From the NCBI GenBank assembly GCA_964458485.1, contig CAYWJA010000004.1, forward strand, positions 2,231 to 66,230: a DNA stretch of 64,000 nt, given 5' to 3'. Shown piece after piece: positions 6,959 to 62,034 of the stretch (the first letter of the stretch is position 1; every line of letters begins with the position of its first letter). Both the position numbers and the translations under genes were made by a program. Source of the stretch: an uncultured Candidatus Peribacteria bacterium. GTDB lineage: Bacteria; Patescibacteriota; Gracilibacteria; UM-FILTER-43-11. A model generated the notes under the pieces. The model worked only from the letters and a program-made list of their open reading frames with translations. It was not told the origin of the DNA and made no database searches.

Positions 6959-7963
6959 ATGAAAGTAGCAATAAATGGCTTCGGCCGCATTGGCCGACAA
7001 ATTATGCATAGAATTATGCAAAAAAACAGCGACCTTGAGGTTGTCGCAATCAATGATCTTTCCGATAATAAAATGTTAGCACTCCTGTTTGGACATGACT
7101 CAACATTCGGTAAATATCCAGGCACTGTGGAATTAAAGGGTGAAGATGAAATTGTTATTGATGGAAAGGCTATCAAAATTTACGCTGAACCGGATCCAGA
7201 AAAACTTCCATGGGGCGAACTTGGTGTAGACACTATTTTTGAATGCACCGGAAGATTCCGTACGCACGAAGATGCCAGCAAGCACGTTACAGCTGGTGCA
7301 AAAAGGGTAATTCTCTCTGCTCCTGCAAAGGGCGATAAAGGTGCTGATGGCACCTTTGTAATGGGCGTGAATGAAGGTGATTTCGACCCAGAGAATCACA
7401 AAATCATTTCAAATGCCAGCTGCACAACAAACTGCCTCGCTCCTGTGGCAAAAGCAATTAACGATGCCTTTGGAATAAAGAGGGGAATCATGACAACTAT
7501 TCACGCTGTAACAACAAGTCAAAAAATTCTAGATATGGCATCTAAGGATGCAAGACGTGCAAGAAGCTGCATGCAAAATATGATCCCAACAACAACCGGT
7601 GCTGCAAAAGCTGTTTCCTTAGTTATCCCGGAGCTTAAAGGGAAACTTACCGGAATGGCTGTACGTGTACCAACTCCAACAGTATCACTTGTTGATTTAA
7701 CTGTAGAATTTGAAAAAGATGTCACCACCGATGAAATCCATGATGTTCTGAAAAAACGTGCACAGGAAATTCCAGAAATTATGCAGGTGGAAGAACGCCC
7801 ACTTGTTTCAAAAGACTTCCAAATGGATTCTCATTCCGCATCTGTTGATGCAATGAGTACCATGGTGATGGGCGGAAACTTAGTAAAAATACTAGTATGG
7901 TACGACAATGAATGGGGGTATTCTTGTAGGATGGTTGATTTGGCGGAACACATATCTAAATAA
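6959..7963 (+). CDS. gap: Glyceraldehyde-3-phosphate dehydrogenase, type I (copy 1)
   Basis: 334 aa with NGFGRIGR and the catalytic SNASCTTNCLAP motif. Confidence 0.95.
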   Translation: MKVAINGFGRIGRQIMHRIMQKNSDLEVVAINDLSDNKMLALLFGHDSTFGKYPGTVELKGEDEIVIDGKAIKIYAEPDPEKLPWGELGVDTIFECTGRFRTHEDASKHVTAGAKRVILSAPAKGDKGADGTFVMGVNEGDFDPENHKIISNASCTTNCLAPVAKAINDAFGIKRGIMTTIHAVTTSQKILDMASKDARRARSCMQNMIPTTTGAAKAVSLVIPELKGKLTGMAVRVPTPTVSLVDLTVEFEKDVTTDEIHDVLKKRAQEIPEIMQVEERPLVSKDFQMDSHSASVDAMSTMVMGGNLVKILVWYDNEWGYSCRMVDLAEHISK

Positions 7964-24688: not shown

Positions 24689-25792
24689 TTAAATCTTAAG
24701 TGGCATAATAATGTGTATATAGTCATCTTTACCACTGGGTCGTACAATGGCCGGCATTGTTTTTTCTCCTAATTCAAAAACCACACTATCAGTACCGATA
24801 TTAGAAAGTACATCTAGTGTAAATTGTGAGTTCAGAGCAATCTCTCCCTCGCCTCCTGTGGTCTTTGTTTTTATCTCAATTTCACCAACACCATATTGCG
24901 TAGTGTCTGTTGTTATATTTAGCCCACCTGATGAAACCTTAAATAAAACTTTATTATTATTTTCTTTAGCAAAAAGATTTATTCGCTTTAAAACCAAGCT
25001 TAATTCAGAAACACTAAGATCAGCTTTAATACTAGTATTTTGTGGTATAACTTGTTGATAATTGGGGAATTGACCCTCAATCAATCGGGATGTTATTTTG
25101 ATTTTATCAATACTAAAAAATATTTGATTTTTAGATACAACCACTTTTATATCTGTGTCATCTTTAGAAAATCCTAAAATTGCCCCCAGTTCTAAAATTG
25201 TTTTACTCGGAACAATGCAAGATATATCACCTGATACATCTCGTGCCTTTAGTGTTTTTTCAGCAAGGCGGTAACTATCGGTCGCGACCATTTTTAGCTC
25301 ATTATTATTAATAGAAAAATAAACACCTGTTAATATTGGTCGTGTTGTGTTTAGTGCAGCGGCAAAGGCAACCTGATTAATTGCAACACCTAAGTCTTTA
25401 TTGGAAATTGTAAACCCGCCGTCTTTTTCAACCGTTGGAATAGATGGGAACTCTGTTGATGCTATGCCTTTAATTTTTGTTTTTGAGTCATCTGTTTTAA
25501 TTAAAACACTATCTCCGTCTTCTACATTTATGTCTACATTTTCATCTTTTAAATAACCAATATAATTTGTTAATAACTTGGATGGAATTGTAATTTCTCC
25601 TTCATTTTTAACATCAGCATCAATCCAATAATTAATGGCAATTTCTAAGTTGGTCGTTGTAAAATACAATTTTTTACCTTCAGCTTTAACCAACACATTA
25701 TTCAAAACAGGTAGTGTATTGTTTGTACTTACCGCTTTATTGGTAATGCTTAAGGCGCTGGCTAAATCTTTTTGTGAACAAGTTAAACGCAT
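24689..25792 (-). CDS. dnaN: DNA polymerase III beta sliding clamp
   Basis: 367 aa with a typical DnaN N-terminus (MRLTCSQKDLASALSITNKAVSTNNTLPVLNNVLV) and three-domain length. Confidence 0.95.
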   Translation of the reverse strand: MRLTCSQKDLASALSITNKAVSTNNTLPVLNNVLVKAEGKKLYFTTTNLEIAINYWIDADVKNEGEITIPSKLLTNYIGYLKDENVDINVEDGDSVLIKTDDSKTKIKGIASTEFPSIPTVEKDGGFTISNKDLGVAINQVAFAAALNTTRPILTGVYFSINNNELKMVATDSYRLAEKTLKARDVSGDISCIVPSKTILELGAILGFSKDDTDIKVVVSKNQIFFSIDKIKITSRLIEGQFPNYQQVIPQNTSIKADLSVSELSLVLKRINLFAKENNNKVLFKVSSGGLNITTDTTQYGVGEIEIKTKTTGGEGEIALNSQFTLDVLSNIGTDSVVFELGEKTMPAIVRPSGKDDYIHIIMPLKI

Positions 25793-26485
25793 TGTCTATA
25801 TTAAGTTAGACAAAAAACAAAATGAGTTTTTTGAAAGATTTTTTATAACATATATATTTTATTGTTTTTTTTCTCTGAATGCAACCACTTTTTTTCTTTT
25901 ATTGTTTATGGGTTTTGAACATTGTTTTATTAATCTAATATATTTTTATTTTAATATATATTTAACTAGTAGAAGTATTAGGGTATTGATAAAAAAGGAA
26001 TAAGTTGGTTAGTATTGTTTGTAAGTGTTTTTGGCTTTATTCGGCTCTGAATCCTGTTTTTGAATATTAATTTTATTCATATAAATAGTGTATTGTTTGT
26101 CTAAGATAAGCCAGATTAGTCACATTTTTAAATTTATTTTAATATATCAAAGCAAGACGCACTGTCGAATTAATAAATAATGATGAATAATAAATAAATA
26201 ATAAATGAAGCTTTGTCCAACATTAAGCCAAATAAGCCGGATAAAAAAATTAGACAACAAAATAGACAAAAATGTGTATAAAATGTGTATAACTTGTGGA
26301 TAAGATGTTAACAAAAAAATAAAAACCGCATTAGTATAACAATACTAAAAAAGCGCTTAAATAAAACATAATTACTTATACATGTGTATAACCAATATAA
26401 CTTTTTATAAACATATACACATAGTTATGAACAGTGACAGATTTAAAATTGTATATGTTGAAAAACAGACAAAACCCAGGCGGTT
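25793..26485. other. Candidate replication origin (AT-rich region with a DnaA-box cluster) upstream of dnaN
   Basis: This is a 693-nt non-coding, very AT-rich spacer, the longest in the window. It holds a perfect DnaA box and several 1-mismatch boxes, plus long A/T runs at 25800-26000 and 26170-26210. Confidence 0.55.
26273..26303. promoter_or_regulatory. Three DnaA-box-like 9-mers in 11-nt register
   Basis: tgtgtataa sits at 26273-26281 and 26284-26292. tgtggataa at 26295-26303 is the exact reverse complement of TTATCCACA. Another tgtgtataa sits at 26383-26391. Confidence 0.7.
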
Positions 26486-38135: not shown

Positions 38136-40286
38136 TTATAGCCCAATTTCGTCAGATATTTCTTTCATTGCTTCAAGAGCTATTTCAAAGAATTCACCAA
38201 GCTCCAATCCACATTTCTCAACTTCGCGGATAACATCACGATTTACCTTGGCGGCAAAAGACTTGTCTTTAAATTTCTTTTTAATAGATTTGACCTTAGC
38301 ACCTTCAAGTTTTTTGTCCGGGCGCATTAGGGCATATGCGAATATTAACCCCGTAACAGTTTCGCCTGCAGCAAGTGCATGTTGAAATTTGGTAGTACGT
38401 TCTTTGTCTTTATATTCAGGAATTTCATCCATTCCATATCCGTGTGATGCGATAACCTCAATGAGTTCATCCGAAACACCTGCATTTTTTAAAATTTCGA
38501 CAGATTTTACACAATGATTTTCAACATCTTCACATGTTTCCTCCCAATCAATGTCATGCAAAAGTCCAGCAATACCCCAAACTTCCTCATCTTCACCAAG
38601 TCGTTTTGCAAGAGCGCGCATTACAACTTCTGATTCGCGGCAGTGATTACGATTCATTGGATCTTTGATGTGTTTATCAAACAATTCTTTTGCCTGTTCA
38701 TAAGTTATGCCGGCGGTTATGTTTTCGTTGTTGTTTTCGGGACGCAGGTCTGCGCCCCCTACAGGATGGTCCGATACCTTCCCACCCTTCGGTCTCATCA
38801 ACGGAAACATAACAACGTCACGCAAATTATCCTGTTGGGTTAAAAGAGTTACAAGGCGGTCGATACCCATCCCCCATCCACTCATTGGTGGCATACCATG
38901 TTCCATAGCTTCCAAATATTCTTCATTCATACTCATTGCTTCTTCATCCCCGCCAGCCTTTGCCTTTGCCTGCCCCTCCAGCCTTTTCCTTTGGTCTGCC
39001 GGGTCAACAAGTTCGCTATATGCATTTATAACTTCCCATGTGTTTACTAAGAGCTGGAATGTATCGCATACTTTGTCACTTTCATCATTTCTTCTCGCAA
39101 GCGGTTTTGTGTCTGCTGGATGATGGATTACAAAACACGGCTGAATCAATTTTGGTCTACTTACCTTTTTGTATAAATGATCAACCAAATTTCCATAACC
39201 CATATTTTCAGCATCTTCTATTTCTATTTCTTTTTCTTTTATAGCTTTTAAAAGATCTTTTTCGTTGTCATATTCCAGAATATCGATTCCGCAGTCTTCT
39301 TTTATCATTTCCCGATAATCCCTGCGTGGCCATGGAGTTTTAAAATCAATTTCAGCCTCTTTGCCTTCCTGATCTTTAATCATAACTTTCGTTGTGCCCA
39401 TTACCTCTTTCATCAAATATTCAAACATTTCTTCGGTAAACTTCATATTATCTTCAAAGTTCCAATATGCAGCATAGTGCTCGATCATTGTAAACTCTTG
39501 TAAGTGGCTTGGGTCCATGCCTTCGTTACGGAAACATCTTGCAACTTCAAAAGTTTTTTCAAAACCACCCACAACCGCTGTTTTTTGCCACAACTCCCCT
39601 GCTGCTATGCGTAAATAAACATCAATATCCAATGCATTATGATGTGTCGAGAAAGGTTTAGCCGCAGCACCGGATGAAATATTTTCAAGAACAGGCGTTT
39701 CAATTTCAGTAAACCCCTTACTCCAATAAAATTCACGTAATTTACGAACGACTTTTGATCGGAATTCAAATCGCGCACGCGCTTCTTTGCTCATCACCAA
39801 ATCAAGATGCCTTTGGCGATATTTTGTTTCTTGGTCTTGAAGCCCGTGCCATTTTTCTGGCAATGGACGGATCGCTTTACCCAAAAAAACCAAATCACTA
39901 ACCAGCAAAGTTGTTTCACCATGTTTGGTTTTAAAAAGCTCACCAGTTACACCAATAAAATCCCCAATGTCCAAAAGTTTCATGAGTTTTTCCTGTTTTT
40001 CATCCAAAACACCTTTCATCAGGCAGATTTGGATTTTACCTTTATCATCTTGAAGATGTGCGAAATTAAGTTTCCCAAAATCACGAAAAGACATCATTCG
40101 TCCACATAACGTGACATCATTTTTATTGTCTTTTTGAATTTCTTCAACGTCGCGTAATTTTTCTTGGCCAAGCTTCAATGCCTCATCAGAATAATGCGTA
40201 CGTTCAAACCGTGCTGGGTAGGGGTTGATACCAAGTGCACGAATTTTTTCGATCTTATCAAATCTTTCTTTTGATATTCTATCCAT
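38136..40286 (-). CDS. lysS: Lysyl-tRNA synthetase (class II) fused to a C-terminal HD-domain hydrolase
   Basis: Residues 1 to ~500 are a complete LysRS ending ...RDVVMFPLMRP. A ~20-aa linker encoded by a palindromic repeat follows, then ~195 aa with HD-superfamily motifs (LLHDIDWE, ASHGYG). Confidence 0.9.
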   Translation of the reverse strand: MDRISKERFDKIEKIRALGINPYPARFERTHYSDEALKLGQEKLRDVEEIQKDNKNDVTLCGRMMSFRDFGKLNFAHLQDDKGKIQICLMKGVLDEKQEKLMKLLDIGDFIGVTGELFKTKHGETTLLVSDLVFLGKAIRPLPEKWHGLQDQETKYRQRHLDLVMSKEARARFEFRSKVVRKLREFYWSKGFTEIETPVLENISSGAAAKPFSTHHNALDIDVYLRIAAGELWQKTAVVGGFEKTFEVARCFRNEGMDPSHLQEFTMIEHYAAYWNFEDNMKFTEEMFEYLMKEVMGTTKVMIKDQEGKEAEIDFKTPWPRRDYREMIKEDCGIDILEYDNEKDLLKAIKEKEIEIEDAENMGYGNLVDHLYKKVSRPKLIQPCFVIHHPADTKPLARRNDESDKVCDTFQLLVNTWEVINAYSELVDPADQRKRLEGQAKAKAGGDEEAMSMNEEYLEAMEHGMPPMSGWGMGIDRLVTLLTQQDNLRDVVMFPLMRPKGGKVSDHPVGGADLRPENNNENITAGITYEQAKELFDKHIKDPMNRNHCRESEVVMRALAKRLGEDEEVWGIAGLLHDIDWEETCEDVENHCVKSVEILKNAGVSDELIEVIASHGYGMDEIPEYKDKERTTKFQHALAAGETVTGLIFAYALMRPDKKLEGAKVKSIKKKFKDKSFAAKVNRDVIREVEKCGLELGEFFEIALEAMKEISDEIGL
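38739..38762. repeat. 28-nt palindrome family, copy 3, inside the lysS-HD linker
   Basis: The reverse complement of gggacgcaggtctgcgccccctac matches copy 1 (34722-34749) with one mismatch over 24 nt. It encodes VGGADLRP. Confidence 0.85.
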
Positions 40287-40317
40287 ATTAAATAATTAAT
40301 ATTTAAAAAACATTTAT

Positions 40318-40352
40318 CATTGTTAATTGTTAAATGTTAAATGTCAAATGTG
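40318..40352. repeat. Word array (t)gttaa(a)t x4-5 upstream of lysS
   Basis: cattgttaattgttaaatgttaaatgtcaaatgtg. Related aaatg(c/t)(c/t)aaat words occur at 52995-53025 and 59350-59380. Confidence 0.75.
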
Positions 40353-40400
40353 TATGAGTATTGTAGCGGAAATAATTTAATTTTTAAATCCAATACTTCA

Positions 40401-40706
40401 TTAACCAGCTGATGCAACAGCTATTACAGCTTCATCAGGTACGATTATATATTTTTTATATTCGCGTGTTAGTGCAGCCACTACTTCTTTGCGTACTCCC
40501 CGCATACTACCGTGTAATAATTCATATATATGATTCTTTTTGTCGGTCATAAGGAGGATGCTAACACGAGTGGGGTGTTTTTCTAATTCCGCGACAGCCT
40601 TACGTCTAGCTTCAATAAAATCGTCACTTGTATCGTGAAACTCATAACCACCACCCCAACCATATGCAACCACTTCAAATCTTTTGCCAAAATAATCTTT
40701 AGCCAT
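40401..40706 (-). CDS. Hypothetical protein (101 aa)
   Basis: Open frame with an ATG start. No domain recognised. Confidence 0.5.
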   Translation of the reverse strand: MAKDYFGKRFEVVAYGWGGGYEFHDTSDDFIEARRKAVAELEKHPTRVSILLMTDKKNHIYELLHGSMRGVRKEVVAALTREYKKYIIVPDEAVIAVASAG

Positions 40707-40767
40707 AATTTGTTTTTTTAAGGCAGTGTATTTTGTGTCATATAATTAGGAATGTCAAGTATCAATC

Positions 40768-41457
40768 ATTAGAAACTAAAGTGGTGAAGCGGTGTATACG
40801 CGAAGCTTCAGCCACCCTCCTCAGTCTACTTCATGAACTTACCGAGAAGATATAAAGGGAGGATTGATATCAGGCTATATCTGTCCGCGCCGAGGCCGGG
40901 AAGGTTCTCACAGGCCAATTCTGGCGGGAACTTGCCGCCGACAGCCTCAGGCGTCACGCAGAGCTTGGGTTTGCGCCCATCGACCTCCAGCCTGACACCG
41001 TTCTCTACCTGATAGATCTTGTCCCCTACCTTTTTGAGGGTGATCTTGGAGGTTGAGAGCCTTATCTGACCATTCGCCATAGCCTCGAGTGCCGAAGGTG
41101 TGAAGACATCGACCTTCACCTTGTCGTTGAATCCCGACATCGCTCCGTTGGGAATGTGGAATTCGTACTTCGACGCAATCTTCATGAAAGCATCTACGAA
41201 CTCTTCCTCCGTGAGCGTCTTCATGGGCTTTGCTTTCGGCTTCTTCACCGCCACTGCCCTTGGGCTGGGCGTGGGTTCGGGGTTTTTTGATACCGTTATC
41301 ACTGCGGGCTGGGGCTCCTGCACCTGCACCTGGGGCGCAGCACAGGAAGCCATCAGCATCGTGATGATGAGTAATCTTTTCATCTGTTTGTTACCTTTTC
41401 TTTCCGGGCACAAGGCCCGTAGTATGCGTATACACCGCTTCCACTTTAATCTCTAAT
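40768..41457. mobile_element. GC-rich cassette bounded by imperfect inverted repeats (no transposase)
   Basis: The left end attagaaactaaagtggtgaagcggtgtatacgc (40768-40801) is inverted relative to the right end gcgtatacaccgcttccactttaatctctaat (41426-41457). The 22/23-nt core differs by one indel. Interior lines count 40/60 (40921-40980) and 38/60 (41221-41280) G+C, against 21/60 in a neighbouring coding line. Confidence 0.5.
40826..41383 (-). CDS. Lipoprotein of unknown function, foreign (high-GC) codon usage
   Basis: MKRLLIITMLMASCAAPQ gives a signal peptide and lipobox Cys. A Pro-rich linker and a ~130-aa domain follow. The ATG at 41383 is preferred over the track start. Confidence 0.65.
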   Translation of the reverse strand: MKRLLIITMLMASCAAPQVQVQEPQPAVITVSKNPEPTPSPRAVAVKKPKAKPMKTLTEEEFVDAFMKIASKYEFHIPNGAMSGFNDKVKVDVFTPSALEAMANGQIRLSTSKITLKKVGDKIYQVENGVRLEVDGRKPKLCVTPEAVGGKFPPELACENLPGLGADRYSLISILPLYLLGKFMK

Positions 41458-41506
41458 TTAAAGAACAGATTGTAGAGTGTTATATTAAGTAATAATCTTA
41501 TTTATG

Positions 41507-41533
41507 TCAAAAAGTGTTGTCGAAATCGACAAC
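41507..41533 (-). terminator. Candidate intrinsic terminator downstream of the PFK gene
   Basis: The minus strand reads gttgtcgatttcgacaac (8-bp perfect stem), then ac and ttttt. It lies 57 nt after the stop codon. Confidence 0.45.
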
Positions 41534-41589
41534 ATCCTTGATTTTATTAAATATAGCAAATTCGTAATAGTAATAAAAACGATATTGTG

Positions 41590-42816
41590 TCAGTCCGTTG
41601 CCAAAATTTTCTCTAAATCATAATCCTCCGGATGTGGCACAATTTTGCCTATTTCTTTATAATTTTCCGGCTTTACATAATGCAAATTGGAAAAAGCTAA
41701 TTTATAATCCTGAGCATCCACATCTACAAGTCTTGTTTTGATTTTGCCGGTTTTTCTATCTTCAATGTCTCTTAGATATAATGGCGAAATTTCTCCATTA
41801 GCTTTTGCTATCACAATACAGCCTGTGCGTCCTTCATCATACAGCTTTTTAACCCCCATACCCAGCATGGTGCAGTAATTCATATCAAAGGCAATAGGGC
41901 TGCAAGCACGTGTTTCATAGCCTAGTTCAACAGGGCGGCTTTTAACCTTTATTCCTATCTCTTTTAATTTTTTCTGTAATAGTACGTTAAAGATATGCGA
42001 TTTAGACACTGTTCCAAGCTCGGGATGGCCATGTTCATCGAATGTAAGATTAATTCCGCAATTAGCAATTTCTGAATCACTCATAAAATGGAAGACTCCT
42101 TCACTTATAATTATGGCGCCATGATCTAGCCCATACATCTTTCGTTTTAAAATCGAAGAAATCATCATATGAATGATTTTGTCGAAAGTGATTTTTTTGC
42201 CCTTAAACATTTCTGGAATAATTACCATTGGGTAATGACATGCTGTGCCTATACCAAAGGCAAGATGTCCTGCCTCTCTGCCCATAGCTGCAACCACAAA
42301 CCAATTTCCACTACTTCTGGCATCCTCATAAATAGTTTGTGCTATACGAGACCCCTCATTTTTTGCTGTTTCATAACCGAATGTAGGCAACCTATCCGGA
42401 AGTGGTAAATCATTATCAATTGTTTTTGGAACATGAATATTTTGAATATCTACTTTTTGCGTTTTTAAATATTTTGTCAGCCGATTGGCCGTTGAAGCAG
42501 TATCGTCACCACCTATTGTAACTAAAAGTTTTACATTATTTTTAGTAAAAAATTCCGTACTGAATTCAGAATCTTTAGGTTTATAACGGCTCATAGTAAG
42601 AACACTGCCTCCTCTATCATAAATATAATCTGCAAGCTCAAAATCAAATTCAACGATTTTTGGTTTACCGGAAAAAATTGTCTTGGTGCCTTCGTTTAGC
42701 CCAATAACCCGCCATCCTTCATTTAAAAAAGATTTAGCAAGAGAGCTGATTACGGAATTGATCCCTGCGGCTGGTCCACCGCTACATAAAATTGCGACTG
42801 TGTTTTTTTCTTTCAT
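41590..42816 (-). CDS. pfp: Phosphofructokinase, pyrophosphate-dependent type
   Basis: PFK-A family. GGDDT (Asp where ATP-PFKs have Gly) and PKTIDND (Lys where ATP-PFKs have Gly) are the classical PPi-specificity residues. Confidence 0.85.
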   Translation of the reverse strand: MKEKNTVAILCSGGPAAGINSVISSLAKSFLNEGWRVIGLNEGTKTIFSGKPKIVEFDFELADYIYDRGGSVLTMSRYKPKDSEFSTEFFTKNNVKLLVTIGGDDTASTANRLTKYLKTQKVDIQNIHVPKTIDNDLPLPDRLPTFGYETAKNEGSRIAQTIYEDARSSGNWFVVAAMGREAGHLAFGIGTACHYPMVIIPEMFKGKKITFDKIIHMMISSILKRKMYGLDHGAIIISEGVFHFMSDSEIANCGINLTFDEHGHPELGTVSKSHIFNVLLQKKLKEIGIKVKSRPVELGYETRACSPIAFDMNYCTMLGMGVKKLYDEGRTGCIVIAKANGEISPLYLRDIEDRKTGKIKTRLVDVDAQDYKLAFSNLHYVKPENYKEIGKIVPHPEDYDLEKILATD

Positions 42817-42893: not shown

Positions 42894-43904
42894 CTATTCG
42901 TTAATTGATTTAGATAAAAGCTCCATCATATCCACAAGCCTACAAGCATACCCCCACTCATTATCGTACCAGGTAATTAGCTTAACATAGCGGTCATCCA
43001 AAACCTTAGTTAATTGTGTGTCTATAATGCTGGAATGGGGATTGGTCTTGAAGTCAATTGATACCAATGGATCATCGCAGTAGTCAATAATAGGTTCATA
43101 GTATTCTTCTCTGCATTTTTTCCTAAAAAAATCATTAAGCTCATCTTCGCTTACACTATTTTCCAGATGAAGTACAATATCGCAAACTGAACTAGTCGCT
43201 ATTGGTACTCTGTAAGCCATACCATCTAACTTTCCCTTTAGTGCAGGAATTATTTTTGCAGTAGCCTTAATAGCACCAGTAGTTGTTGGGATTACAGACT
43301 GAACAGCACTGCGGCATCGACGCAAATCTCTGCCAGAATTATCTAGAAGATTCTGAGAATGTGTAAATGAATGAATGGAAGAAACAGAGGCATTTAAAAT
43401 ACCCCATTTTTCATGCACTAGTTTAATAGGCGGAGCAATACAGTTGGTCGTACAACTTGCATTAGAAATTACTTTATATTCTGATTTTAAATCTTTTTCA
43501 TTTACCCCAATAACGAAAGTTGGTGTGTCATCTTTCATTGGTGCAGAAACGAGAACTTTTTTTACACCACCTTCCAGATGTCGGCTGGCTATGTCGTAAG
43601 TTTTTGCTTTACCGGTACACTCCAAGACAATATCCACATCATAATCGCTCCATGGAATTTCACGTGCGTCTTTGATTGCAAAACAATGTACATTTTTACC
43701 ATCCACTAGAATCCCTTCACCATTTTTCTTAACTTCATTTTTAATATTGCCATGCAGAGAGTCATATTTTAAAAGATGTGCCCGCATTTTTCTGTCTTCT
43801 GACCTAGCATTAATTGCAACCACTTCCATATCTGGACGGTTTAGGAGTATGCGATGGACAATACGTCCGATTCGGCCGTAGCCGTTTAGGCCTACTTTGA
43901 TCAT
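42894..43904 (-). CDS. gap: Glyceraldehyde-3-phosphate dehydrogenase, type I (copy 2)
   Basis: 336 aa with NGYGRIGR and SNASCTTNCIAP. It is clearly diverged from the copy at 6959-7963. Confidence 0.9.
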   Translation of the reverse strand: MIKVGLNGYGRIGRIVHRILLNRPDMEVVAINARSEDRKMRAHLLKYDSLHGNIKNEVKKNGEGILVDGKNVHCFAIKDAREIPWSDYDVDIVLECTGKAKTYDIASRHLEGGVKKVLVSAPMKDDTPTFVIGVNEKDLKSEYKVISNASCTTNCIAPPIKLVHEKWGILNASVSSIHSFTHSQNLLDNSGRDLRRCRSAVQSVIPTTTGAIKATAKIIPALKGKLDGMAYRVPIATSSVCDIVLHLENSVSEDELNDFFRKKCREEYYEPIIDYCDDPLVSIDFKTNPHSSIIDTQLTKVLDDRYVKLITWYDNEWGYACRLVDMMELLSKSINE

Positions 43905-48709: not shown

Positions 48710-48737
48710 GTAGGGGACGCAGATCTGCGTCCCCTAC
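48710..48737. repeat. 28-nt palindrome family, copy 2 (upstream of the epimerase gene)
   Basis: gtaggggacgcagatctgcgtcccctac is a perfect 28-nt palindrome. It begins 27 nt beyond the epimerase ATG (minus strand). Confidence 0.9.
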
Positions 48738-59273: not shown

Positions 59274-59284
59274 AATATAATTTC

Positions 59285-59310
59285 GCATTTCGCATTTCTG
59301 ATTTCGCATT
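59285..59310. repeat. Left arm of a perfect 26-nt inverted repeat in the ilvD-ilvB spacer
   Basis: gcatttcgcatttctgatttcgcatt; its exact reverse complement lies at 59383-59408. Confidence 0.9.
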
Positions 59311-59382
59311 GTCATGTACCATTTTGCAATTAGCAATTACTAATTAATTAGTTAAATGCCAAATGAGTGAATGCCAATTGTG

Positions 59383-59408
59383 AATGCGAAATCAGAAATG
59401 CGAAATGC
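59383..59408. repeat. Right arm of the perfect 26-nt inverted repeat
   Basis: aatgcgaaatcagaaatgcgaaatgc. It overlaps the first base of the ilvD stop codon, and 22 nt recur at 12794-12815. Confidence 0.9.
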
Positions 59409-61030
59409 TAAGTTAAAAAGTATTCCTTCCTATATCTCTCCAACGCAGGTGTAAGCTTGCGCTTAGGTTTTTTCATGGTTTTTAATCTCCTTTTAATTTC
59501 TCTGTCACTCAATTTTACATTAAGTTTACGTTTTGGGATATCGATTTCAATTATATCACCATTTTTAATAGCCCCAATTGGCCCACCATTGTAAGCCTCT
59601 GGCTCAATATGGCCAATGCAGGCACCGCGGGTTCCTCCACTAAATCGCCCATCCGTTAGTAGCGCTACTTTAAGCCCGGCTCCAGCTATCACAGCTGTTG
59701 GCGTCAGCATTTCCGGCATTCCCGGTGCTCCTGCTGCGCCCATAAAATTGAGCACAACCACATCACCATTTTTAATTTTCTTTTTTTCAACAGCCTTAAG
59801 TACAGCATCTTCCGATGAAAATACTTTTGCAGACCCGGTAAATTTGAGCATATCCGGCTCAACTGCAGTCTGTTTTATAACAGAACTAGTCGCAATATTA
59901 CCTTTTAATATGGCAATTCCTCCCTCTTTATAATACGGCTTGCTGAGAGGGCGGATCACATTGTCATTTTTTACCTTACTCTTATTCGCAATTTCTTTAA
60001 TATCTTTACCATTTATCGTTGGGGATTTTTTAATAAACTTTTTCAATCGATTTAATACCGCAGAAATACCTCCGGCTTTATATAAATCTTCCATATCATG
60101 CACGCCTGCCGGCCTTAAATGGCAGATATTTGGAGTGTTTTTAGACACTTTGTCAAAAGTAGTCAGAGTTAGTTTAATACCAGCTTCTTTTGCAATTGCA
60201 GGCAGATGCAATGCTACATTTGTTGATCCGCCAATTGCCATATCTACCCTCACTGCATTCTCGAATGCTTGTTTTGTCATAATATCTCGAGCCTTGATAT
60301 CTTTTTTTACAAGCTGAACAATTCTTTTGCCGGTTTCGTAAGCTTGCTTCTTCTTTTTCGGGTCTAGCGCAAGTGTCGCAGCACATCCTGTAACAGACAT
60401 ACCTAAAACTTCTGTCATACATGCCATAGAATTTGCCGTAAATAATCCAGAGCAGCTACCGGCACTTGGGCAGGATGCACATTCAATTTTTAAGCCTTCT
60501 TTTTTAGTCATTTGCCCAGCCTTTATCTTTCCAACAGCTTCAAATGCACCAGATACAAGGTCGATTTTTTTGCCATGTAACTTTCCGGATTTCATTGGTC
60601 CACCTGTTATAATTGCAGCTGGTAAATTTACCCTTGCAGCACCCATTAGCATACCTGGTGTAATTTTATCGCAATTTGTAACACCAACCCATCCATCTAA
60701 CGAATGAGATAGCGTCATTATTTCAATATTATCCGCAATATGATCACGCGATGGAAGCGAAAGACGCATTTCCACATACATCGCAATACCATCACACACA
60801 GCAGGCACCCCCCATTCTAACGGCACACCACCAGCATCACGTATGCCTTTTTTTACCCATTTTGTAAGTACATTTAAGTGGACATGACCGGGTACAATAT
60901 CTGTAAACGCATTAGCAACCCCAATGAATGGTTTTTTAAAATCACTATCTTTCATCCCACCTGCACGCAGGAGTGATCGGTGGGGGATAGTTTCTATACC
61001 TTTTTTGAGTTTGTTTGATGGTAATTTCAT
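59408..61030 (-). CDS. ilvD: Dihydroxy-acid dehydratase
   Basis: 540 aa with an IlvD/Edd family layout ([18 protein letters not shown]). Confidence 0.95.
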
Positions 61031-61953: not shown

Positions 61954-61957
61954 AATT

Positions 61958-62034
61958 AGGATGTAGGATTGTAGGATGTAGGATTGTAGGAATTTATAGT
62001 AGGCCTACATCCTACATGCCTACTACCTACAACC
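61958..62034. repeat. Opposed word arrays (aggatgt/aggattgt)n ... (cctaca)n
   Basis: The left arm aggatgtaggattgtaggatgtaggattgtagga faces the right arm aggcctacatcctacatgcctactacctacaacc. It belongs to the same family as 5856-5947. Confidence 0.85.

Follow-up and report, generated by a model that had tools for sequence, protein, structure and literature searches.

A lipoprotein gene of foreign codon usage and the conserved inverted repeat that brackets it in an uncultured bacterium

What keeps a single GC-rich gene together with the inverted repeats on either side of it, in the midst of a genome whose composition it does not share? The question is raised by positions 40768-41457 of a 64-kb stretch of contig CAYWJA010000004.1 (the whole stretch is called the window below), where one lipoprotein gene lies between inverted arms of 34 and 32 nt. 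The original prediction saw here a compositionally foreign cassette and offered three explanations: recent horizontal acquisition on a non-autonomous element, an invertible gene cassette, or a chimeric assembly. Our analysis establishes foreign codon usage, real junctions, and a bracket formed by the two arms that is conserved throughout the gene family, covaries and is asymmetric. We put at roughly 0.4 the probability of the reading that we favour, namely that a horizontally acquired gene module carries a repeat that would act as an RNA helix between its 5′ and 3′ untranslated regions (UTRs), comparable to the stems that RNase III cuts in the intervening sequences (IVSs) of 23S rRNA.

A foreign gene between real junctions

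The deviant composition of the cassette is genuine. Measured in 200-nt intervals, G+C content is 0.49-0.575 between about 40800 and 41400 and 0.26-0.41 on both flanks, and the 600-nt interval that begins at 40771 is the GC maximum of the 64 kb (0.545 versus a mean of 0.378, standard deviation (sd) 0.036). The sole convincing open reading frame (ORF) in the segment lies on the minus strand and encodes, as had been proposed, a predicted lipoprotein, with a signal peptide and a lipobox (MKRLLIITMLMASC) read from the sequence. G+C at its three codon positions (GC1/GC2/GC3) is 0.54/0.39/0.70, compared with means of 0.49/0.35/0.32 (GC3 sd 0.07) for the 46 window ORFs of at least 150 amino acids (aa) that served as reference; its GC3 is the highest among them. 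Since GC1 and GC2 are near normal, the excess at synonymous sites indicates foreign codon usage and not amino-acid content. A protein rich in proline, alanine and glycine was accordingly ruled out as the source of the excess.

Recent horizontal acquisition of the gene is well supported, as the original prediction had suspected. The case is built on the unameliorated GC of synonymous sites, on the missing cassette next to PFK in relatives, and on a GC3 of 0.70 that lies inside the range of family members from genomes of 42-49% GC. On the minus strand the gene order reads FBA-GAPDH-PFK, cassette, a 101-aa gene and LysRS/HD, and the large ORFs of the window are all housekeeping genes (aminoacyl-tRNA synthetases, glycolysis, ilv, PBP, dnaN, RNase J and sortase-SLH among them). 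PFK relatives at 79-83% identity bear the labels Peregrinibacteria or Patescibacteria and in one case KSB1; these are source labels and not a phylogeny, and on their account the host is probably a bacterium of the candidate phyla radiation (CPR). Closer PFK relatives, at 94% (L019-L021) and 85% (L022, L023), keep FBA-GAPDH-PFK and continue after PFK with unrelated genes and no cassette, which makes the gene lineage-specific. The search for an empty site thus succeeded in part: the cassette is missing beside PFK in relatives, but synteny breaks directly after PFK, so that no precise empty site can be read there. No donor lineage emerged either. A search of 5.8 billion clustered proteins recovered only the protein itself, and a profile search returned nothing beyond the known homologues, with no match in GTDB representatives, IMG/VR, plasmids or phages and one contig in JGI.

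The junctions are equally genuine. Ten further contigs (L001-L010), which exact-protein look-ups found in JGI, ENA and Logan assemblies of several samples, agree with the window at 99.96-100% identity. Both junctions are spanned, with at most one mismatch, by L002, L004, L005 and L010, which come from one ENA assembly and no fewer than three JGI samples; L001 covers the right junction, and L003 and L006-L009 cover the left arm. The chimeric assembly considered in the original prediction is therefore refuted, as independent assemblies of several samples carry both junctions. Orientation is identical in all 11 junction-crossing contigs (the window and L001-L010; at least eight assemblies).

The population is polymorphic within the cassette. 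Position 40818, in the 3′ UTR, is T in the window and C in L002, L004 and L005, and several Logan contigs end at 40817/40819 because of this single-nucleotide polymorphism (SNP). Three other assemblies all stop at one and the same position, 40837, which lies within the ORF, 11 nt from its 3′ end. A contig end also falls at 40906, an A/T polymorphism is found at 40664 in the 101-aa gene (L010), and a 9-nt direct repeat, CTTCATGAA, occupies 40829-40837 and 41180-41188.

A bracket conserved throughout the family

Inverted repeats do bound the segment. The arms match in two blocks, perfectly over 16 nt and at 88% over 17 nt, split by a 2-nt 'tg' indel in the left arm. The one indel of the original prediction thus measures 2 nt, and both mismatches between the arms would permit G·U pairs in the mRNA. 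The core pattern of 22-24 nt is found nowhere else in the window, where shuffles expect 0.00. Rfam families gave no match at 40300-41900, and there is no rRNA in that interval.

The meaning of the indel becomes apparent from the homologues of the lipoprotein. An exhaustive HMMER scan of 1.84 billion representatives yielded five remote clusters (P0005-P0009) at 30-49% identity, and their loci (L011/L012/L013, L014, L015/L016, L017 and L018) together with the window gave six loci for comparison. Every homologue ORF is flanked by an inverted repeat, 660-710 nt apart, with arms homologous to those of the window. The family 5′ arm (TTAGAAGCTAAAGCAG+GAGCGATAT...) ends 25-42 nt before the ATG; the complementary 3′ arm (...ATATCGCTCC, 2-3 unpaired nt, then CTGCTTTAGCTTCTAA) starts 24-36 nt past the stop. 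The consensus bracket is TTAGAARCTRAAGCAGGAGCGRT ... AYCGCTCC-NN-CTGCTTTAGYTTCTAA, of which the window carries a diverged version with compensatory changes (...AAAGTGG+AAGCGGTGTAT... / ...ATACACCGCTT-CA-CCACTTT...). The window's 'indel' is therefore a family-wide bulge of 2-3 nt, found in the 3′ arm at all six loci, and the bracket as a whole is a bipartite inverted repeat of about 26-32 bp with one arm in the 5′ UTR and one in the 3′ UTR.

Pairing of the arms is kept across the family. In the arm alignment of the six loci, 96.7% of 151 cells are standard pairs, compared with 37-48% in slid registers. Two-sided, compensatory changes occur in 8 of 32 pairs, and none of 500 shuffles reaches the observed values of pairing and covariation. 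One-sided departures number seven cells in four columns, all of them G·U on the mRNA strand and none A·C; standard pairs accordingly amount to 141 of 144 in the sense direction and 134 of 144 in the antisense direction. When both UTRs are folded with RNAcofold, the bracket helix appears at six of six loci, with energies of -40 to -63 kcal/mol. A 716-nt model of the window transcript closes with a 32-bp helix and its 2-nt bulge in both the minimum free energy (MFE) and centroid structures (z = -7.1). The window 5′ arm, paired in both structures, is homologous to the 5′ arms of L011, L014, L015, L017 and L018. The Shine-Dalgarno (SD)-like GAAAAGG, whose role as a ribosome-binding site is an inference from sequence, and the AUG are unpaired in the predicted fold, leaving the site unoccluded.

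A vertically inherited locus reveals the strength of the constraint. The close relatives L011, L017 and L018 (TrmD about 90% and SerRS 85% identical at the aa level) share the order SerRS, cassette, an extra gene in some, PF1765 and TrmD. Among them DNA identity is 61-64% for the lipoprotein ORF (about 47% aa), 73-77% for PF1765, 79-81% for TrmD and 88-96% for the bracket arms. By this comparison of sequences, the arms are the most constrained DNA of the SerRS-TrmD locus, beyond the neighbouring housekeeping genes, as purifying selection would make them. A bracket that is conserved, covarying and asymmetric throughout the family, the vertically inherited locus included, argues for a maintained function, most simply at the RNA level. 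ORF GC3 is also raised over that of host genes: 0.70 versus 0.32 in the window, 0.75 versus 0.43-0.60 in L011, 0.69 versus 0.49-0.61 in L017 and 0.58 versus 0.35-0.45 in L014, while the 0.64 of L018 lies within its host range of 0.32-0.66.

The family occurs in three unrelated contexts, namely PFK|LysRS in the window, SerRS|PF1765 in the lineage just described and Mur ligase|unknown in L014. L024, whose TrmD falls in the same 90% cluster, is without the cassette; the stretch by which it differs from L018 measures about 1.45 kb and does not have the arms as its boundaries. No transposase or recombinase domains are listed around the homologues in the gene tables of L011, L014, L017, L018 and L024. 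The SerRS|PF1765 spacer is variable in several respects. In L011 (7170-8024) it holds the cassette alone, in L017 (830-2780) and L018 (2137-4460) the cassette and a secreted protein of 288-310 aa, with a further 146-aa ORF in L018, and in L024 (9590-10526) only the extra secreted-protein gene, apparently frameshifted. In L017 the sequence right after the 3′ arm resembles the 3′ end of PF1765, as if it were a partial target duplication. Inside the bracket, the closer relatives share CCTGAGAAAGG, a probable SD region, before the ATG and a purine-rich CAGGTGGAGAGCTTCC after the stop, the window version of which is GAGGAGGGTGG; these conserved motifs may form a further helix or bind ribosomes.

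The encoded protein is predicted to be a secreted lipoprotein and not a DNA enzyme. The lipobox is MKRLLIITMLMAS-C in the window and, as read from the alignment, L(A/V/L)(S/C)A-C in four homologues with an aligned N-terminus. P0005 as listed begins downstream of the lipobox, and the upstream reading frame on L015 encodes ...WLASACAA. All members share two further invariant cysteines and a C-terminal tail; since homologues keep the tail (...RYSLISILPLYLL), the AT-richer 3′ end of the ORF does not reflect truncation or fusion of the C-terminus. Pfam, NCBIfam and PHROG contain no family for the protein and gave no viral match, and TonB- or Rz-like matches from these collections (E>0.001) were rejected as composition-level noise. 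A sequence-profile search of PDB found nothing. The single-sequence AlphaFold2 (AF2) model was poor (predicted local distance difference test score, pLDDT, 45), while a model from the family alignment reached a mean pLDDT of 80, with residues 50-185 above 88. Foldseek with this second model returned no match with E<0.5 in PDB or BFVD (best E 0.55 and 0.72).

Table 1. Positions of the cassette parts and of other features in the 64-kb window
Feature	Coordinates	Strand	Remarks
3′ arm, mRNA sense GCGTATACACCGCTT-CA-CCACTTTAGTTTCTAAT	40768..40801	-	Inner helix 40787-40801, 2-nt bulge 40785-40786, outer helix 40768-40784
3′ UTR spacer, stop to 3′ arm	40802..40825	-	Holds population SNP 40818
Lipoprotein ORF	40826..41383	-	ATG at 41383, stop at 40826; 185 aa; GC3 0.70; rare family without known domain or fold match
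5′ UTR, arm to ATG	41384..41425	-	Local hairpin 41405-41419; SD-like GAAAAGG 41394-41400, unpaired in predicted fold
5′ arm, mRNA sense ATTAGAGATTAAAGTGG+AAGCGGTGTATACGC	41426..41457	-	Outer helix 41441-41457, inner helix 41426-41440
Sigma-70-like promoter TTGACA-17-TAATAT	41482..41510	-	Ends 25 nt upstream of 5′ arm, outside repeat; consensus match only
Terminator-like hairpin and T run ending PFK	41515..41534	-	Directly upstream of promoter-like site
Second promoter-like site TTGACA-17-CAAAAT	40730..40758	-	Just past 3′ arm, before 101-aa gene
PF05635 (23S_rRNA_IVP) ORF	31414..31821	-	135 aa; about 9 kb from the cassette, outside any rRNA
Inverted repeat around PF05635 ORF	31401..31439 / 31819..31857		39 nt, AT-only, 87% complementary; overlaps start and stop codons
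LysRS with C-terminal HD-domain fusion	38136..40286		716 aa
GAPDH genes	6959..7963 / 42894..43904		Two in 64 kb
Sortase fused to SLH domains	26486..27595		
dnaN	24689..25792	-	Followed by spacer of about 700 bp, about 29% GC, lowest in window (24689-26485 region)
28-nt palindrome GTAGGGG(A/G)CGCAGATCTGCGTCCCCTAC	48710..48737 / 34722..34749		Two copies, perfect or near-perfect; none expected by chance
Long hairpins in ilv-operon spacers	59278..59415 / 61957..62029		One with 46-nt arms of TTTCGCAT-like repeats, the other with 26-nt arms of TAGGATG repeats

A proposed RNA helix and its rivals

The geometry of the locus is consistent with an RNA helix. With a promoter-like site upstream, and on the coding strand no terminator-like site between the arms or between the cassette and the 101-aa gene, both arms would be transcribed with the ORF. 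In L014, too, the 5′ arm is preceded at about 30 nt by a promoter-like sequence (TTGACA-17-CATATT, a consensus match only). The position of the promoter-like site outside the repeat is unlike that of a self-contained transposon.

Under the favoured reading, transcription would begin at the promoter-like site a short distance ahead of the 5′ arm. As soon as the 3′ arm has been transcribed, it would pair with the 5′ arm into a long double-stranded RNA helix and close the whole ORF into a loop. RNase III could then cut the helix and free the lipoprotein mRNA from read-through into downstream genes. Alternatively, the helix may clamp both ends of the mRNA against exonucleases such as RNase J. Either route would make expression and stability independent of context wherever the gene lands. 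The 16S and 23S rRNAs are likewise bracketed by helical stems. The arms' place on one transcript, helix formation in vivo, and a function in RNase III processing or end protection are all inferred.

Several observations weigh against this reading. The promoters are consensus matches; for L011 and L017, a promoter scan of the coding strand upstream of the arm found none, and the conserved TTGCA...TAnnTT block ahead of the arm in L011, L017 and L018 was left unscored by the scan. Arms that serve as recombinase sites, or as transposon ends to which one transposase binds, would be expected to covary as well. For the G·U asymmetry there are about four independent columns (P ~0.06 if transitions are strand-neutral). 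Conservation of the outer arm half in sequence, beyond pairing, hints at a sequence-specific partner. Compositional boundaries that coincide with the arm ends, and at least three unrelated contexts for the family, both fit a repeat-ended DNA element. An RNA helix gives no account of the GC3 by which family members exceed their hosts even at syntenic loci. Finally, an RNase III gene (rnc) was not seen within the 64-kb window, the one part of the genome that the search covered.

The rival that survives best, although we consider it unlikely, is a non-autonomous cassette akin to a mobile insertion cassette (MIC) or a miniature inverted-repeat transposable element (MITE). The arms would be terminal inverted repeats for a transposase acting in trans, the lipoprotein a passenger, and the RNA helix a by-product. 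Such an origin is compatible with an additional RNA effect; transcribed MITEs such as Correia elements are RNase III substrates. A single gene between imperfect inverted repeats with no transposase inside is also the arrangement of mic-qnrS2 (1,375 bp, 22-bp repeats; PMC2600179). The match between compositional boundaries and arm ends, the three contexts, and presence or absence among close relatives (L024) all speak for mobility. TA stands at both outer ends in five of six loci, and an IS630/mariner-type TA duplication would hide in palindromic ends; the ends read TTAG.../...CTAA, where a 2-bp TA duplication is indistinguishable from the palindrome.

The expected traces of transposition were nonetheless not found, in keeping with the original prediction's remark that the segment has no transposase, integrase or obvious target duplication. 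No target duplication of at least 3 bp is present at the window locus or any of the six family loci, and the upstream and downstream flanks, compared as a possible long (promoter) target duplication, are not significantly alike (P ~0.16). Domain scans of the large ORFs in the 64-kb window found no transposase, integrase, invertase or recombinase, and there is no transposase around any homologue. Within the window each arm occurs once, and every family locus examined has one bracket. The exact window-specific gapped pattern scored 0 in JGI contigs and GTDB representatives and the exact family-consensus 3′ arm 0 in IMG/VR, all collections that also missed the window's own contig. In MICs, moreover, the repeat is constant and the passenger varies, while here the passenger is constant. 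The absence in L024 is not arm-bounded, and an asymmetric bulge with a sense-strand G·U bias is unexpected for transposon ends. Arms kept at 88-96% in a syntenic, vertically inherited locus, where the ORF is at about 62%, are unlike the ends of a dead transposon, which would decay. The non-autonomous element offered by the original prediction is thus without positive evidence, there being no clear target-site duplication (TSD), second repeat copy or recombinase.

The invertible cassette that had also been envisaged is improbable. A recombinase encoded elsewhere would flip the segment and switch it ON or OFF relative to an outside promoter. The promoter-like site does lie outside the repeat-bounded segment, and repeats that serve in recombination would be expected to stay conserved. 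The lipoprotein, fast-evolving and probably exposed at the surface, also belongs to a class that is often phase-variable, and invertons cluster near surface genes (PMC11892184). The inverted orientation was, however, absent from the 11 junction-crossing contigs of at least eight assemblies, and throughout the family the segment faces the same way with respect to its neighbouring genes and the promoter-like region upstream. Neither the 64 kb nor the homologue loci encode an invertase or a tyrosine recombinase, the 2-3-nt indel that distinguishes the arms, itself conserved, would fit poorly with a crossover region, and the foreign composition would be left unaccounted for.

Rather improbable, too, is that the arms are handles for swapping lipoprotein alleles between strains, by homologous or site-specific exchange and possibly as folded single-stranded DNA with extrahelical bases like attC. 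Exchange would account for the hyper-divergent ORFs in close relatives, where strains with TrmD about 90% identical (aa) carry lipoproteins about 47% identical between nearly identical arms, and, through biased gene conversion, for a GC3 raised in every host. The bulge is conserved, G·T is tolerated in folded DNA too, and the three assemblies ending at 40837 could mark a structural variant. Arms of about 30 bp are, however, short for RecA-dependent exchange, the 620-nt 'loop' is far beyond known attC sites, and there is no integrase, GTTRRRY core or cassette array. Nor does the window's population show a second allele among 15 billion proteins. That the segment is an assembly chimera, or a native gene of odd composition around which a repeat arose by chance, can be dismissed. 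It is a single anomaly in a metagenome-derived contig, and several contigs do end between 40817 and 40837, but both junctions are covered in independent assemblies from several samples, the breaks at 40817/40819 coincide with the T/C SNP, the repeat exceeds chance expectation by far and is found again in all homologues, and it is GC3, not amino-acid content, that is anomalous.

A second bracketed ORF in the window bears on how far the favoured RNA reading might extend. The PF05635 ORF belongs to the 23S_rRNA_IVP family, and the model of its 471-nt RNA is closed by a 30-bp AT helix (z = -4.1). The 5′ arm there starts CTTTAGTTTTTAG, and the resemblance to the cassette 3′ arm CTTTAGTTTCTAAT may be fortuitous. 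The lipoprotein gene with its bracket, and perhaps the PF05635 ORF with its own, could represent a class of free-standing, IVS-like single-gene modules in which a conserved bulged helix insulates expression at the RNA level and the same bracket defines a unit that moves between distant bacteria, CPR included, by a transposase-free route. Such movement might proceed by recombination of the folded bracket or by an exchange of alleles at the arms. We regard this generalization as speculative and, on present evidence, doubtful.

Other features of the window are collected in Table 1. The spacer next to dnaN could be a replication-origin region, although the cumulative GC skew has no clear turn, and the 28-nt palindrome may be a repetitive extragenic palindromic (REP)-like or terminator element.

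Relation to known systems

The locus is a clean example of a single gene that recently entered a reduced genome, probably that of a CPR bacterium, by horizontal transfer, and the limits of the transferred unit can be set at about 690 bp. It also presents a conserved motif, a bulged bracket of 26-32 bp that encloses a whole ORF and is more tightly constrained than the housekeeping genes beside it. Should the RNA reading be true, the bracket would be a natural 'expression insulator' that travels with its gene and extends the stem-processing logic of rRNA and IVSs to mRNAs. If a DNA reading is true, it would belong to a mobile cassette without recognisable machinery. Either way, the bracket provides a testable handle on the exchange and expression of surface-protein genes in uncultivated bacteria.

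The closest parallel is the IVS of 23S rRNA. In the 428-nt IVS of Coxiella burnetii, an S23p ORF lies in the loop of a stem of about 28-30 bp that is formed by terminal inverted repeats and contains a mismatch and a bulge (PMC4990558). ORF-containing IVSs are cut mid-stem by RNase III, deviate in GC, and were acquired horizontally and then kept vertically (PMC4990558). The cassette resembles them in its small ORF in a stem loop, its deviant GC, its sporadic distribution, its freedom from mobility genes, and terminal complementary sequences that, by predicted fold and covariation, form a long stem around the ORF. The window even contains an ORF of the IVS-protein family PF05635, closed by a 30-bp helix and outside rRNA. 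Unlike an IVS, the cassette sits between PFK and the 101-aa gene and not in helix 9, 25 or 45 of 23S rRNA. It encodes a secreted lipoprotein and not the four-helix-bundle S23p, and its arms have neither sequence similarity to IVS stems nor an Rfam match.

Pairing between the 5′ and 3′ UTRs of one mRNA has precedents as well. It is linked to RNase III cleavage or to protection from RNases J and Y in Staphylococcus aureus icaR (PMC3868564) and Bacillus subtilis hbs (PMC5737220). The cassette likewise has complementary segments in its predicted 5′ and 3′ UTRs, which would lie on one mRNA, with compensatory changes and G·U on the sense strand only. The icaR and hbs pairings are short and involve the SD or a 5′ stem, whereas the cassette duplex is 26-32 bp long and bulged, leaves the SD-like site free and brackets the ORF symmetrically.

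Among DNA elements, MICs share with the cassette one passenger gene, imperfect inverted repeats, no transposase and a foreign origin. A MIC such as mic-qnrS2 is defined by a 5-bp CCTCC target duplication together with repeats related to an insertion sequence (IS) (PMC2600179), and mic-qnrD is a further example (PMC3913671). The cassette has no TSD of at least 3 bp, IS relation or other copy, and its repeat co-evolves with one gene family in a vertical locus. Invertons are invertible DNA flanked by inverted repeats (PMC11892184; bioRxiv 10.1101/2023.03.11.532203). Like them, the cassette is a repeat-flanked segment of a few hundred bp with a surface-protein gene and a promoter outside; unlike them, it has no nearby recombinase, one orientation in all assemblies, a conserved arm indel and a whole foreign gene inside. 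Integron cassettes also combine a single gene of foreign composition with an imperfect repeat that has conserved unpaired bases. The arms of attC, however, lie adjacent at the 3′ end of the cassette with a GTTRRRY core, whereas the arms described here flank the ORF 620 nt apart, with no core, integrase or array. Taken together, these comparisons suggest that the bracket is a previously undescribed motif without an Rfam family, one that combines features of IVS-like and UTR-pairing brackets with those of repeat-bounded cassettes, and whose partner protein, judged by its alignment-based model, matches no fold in PDB or BFVD.

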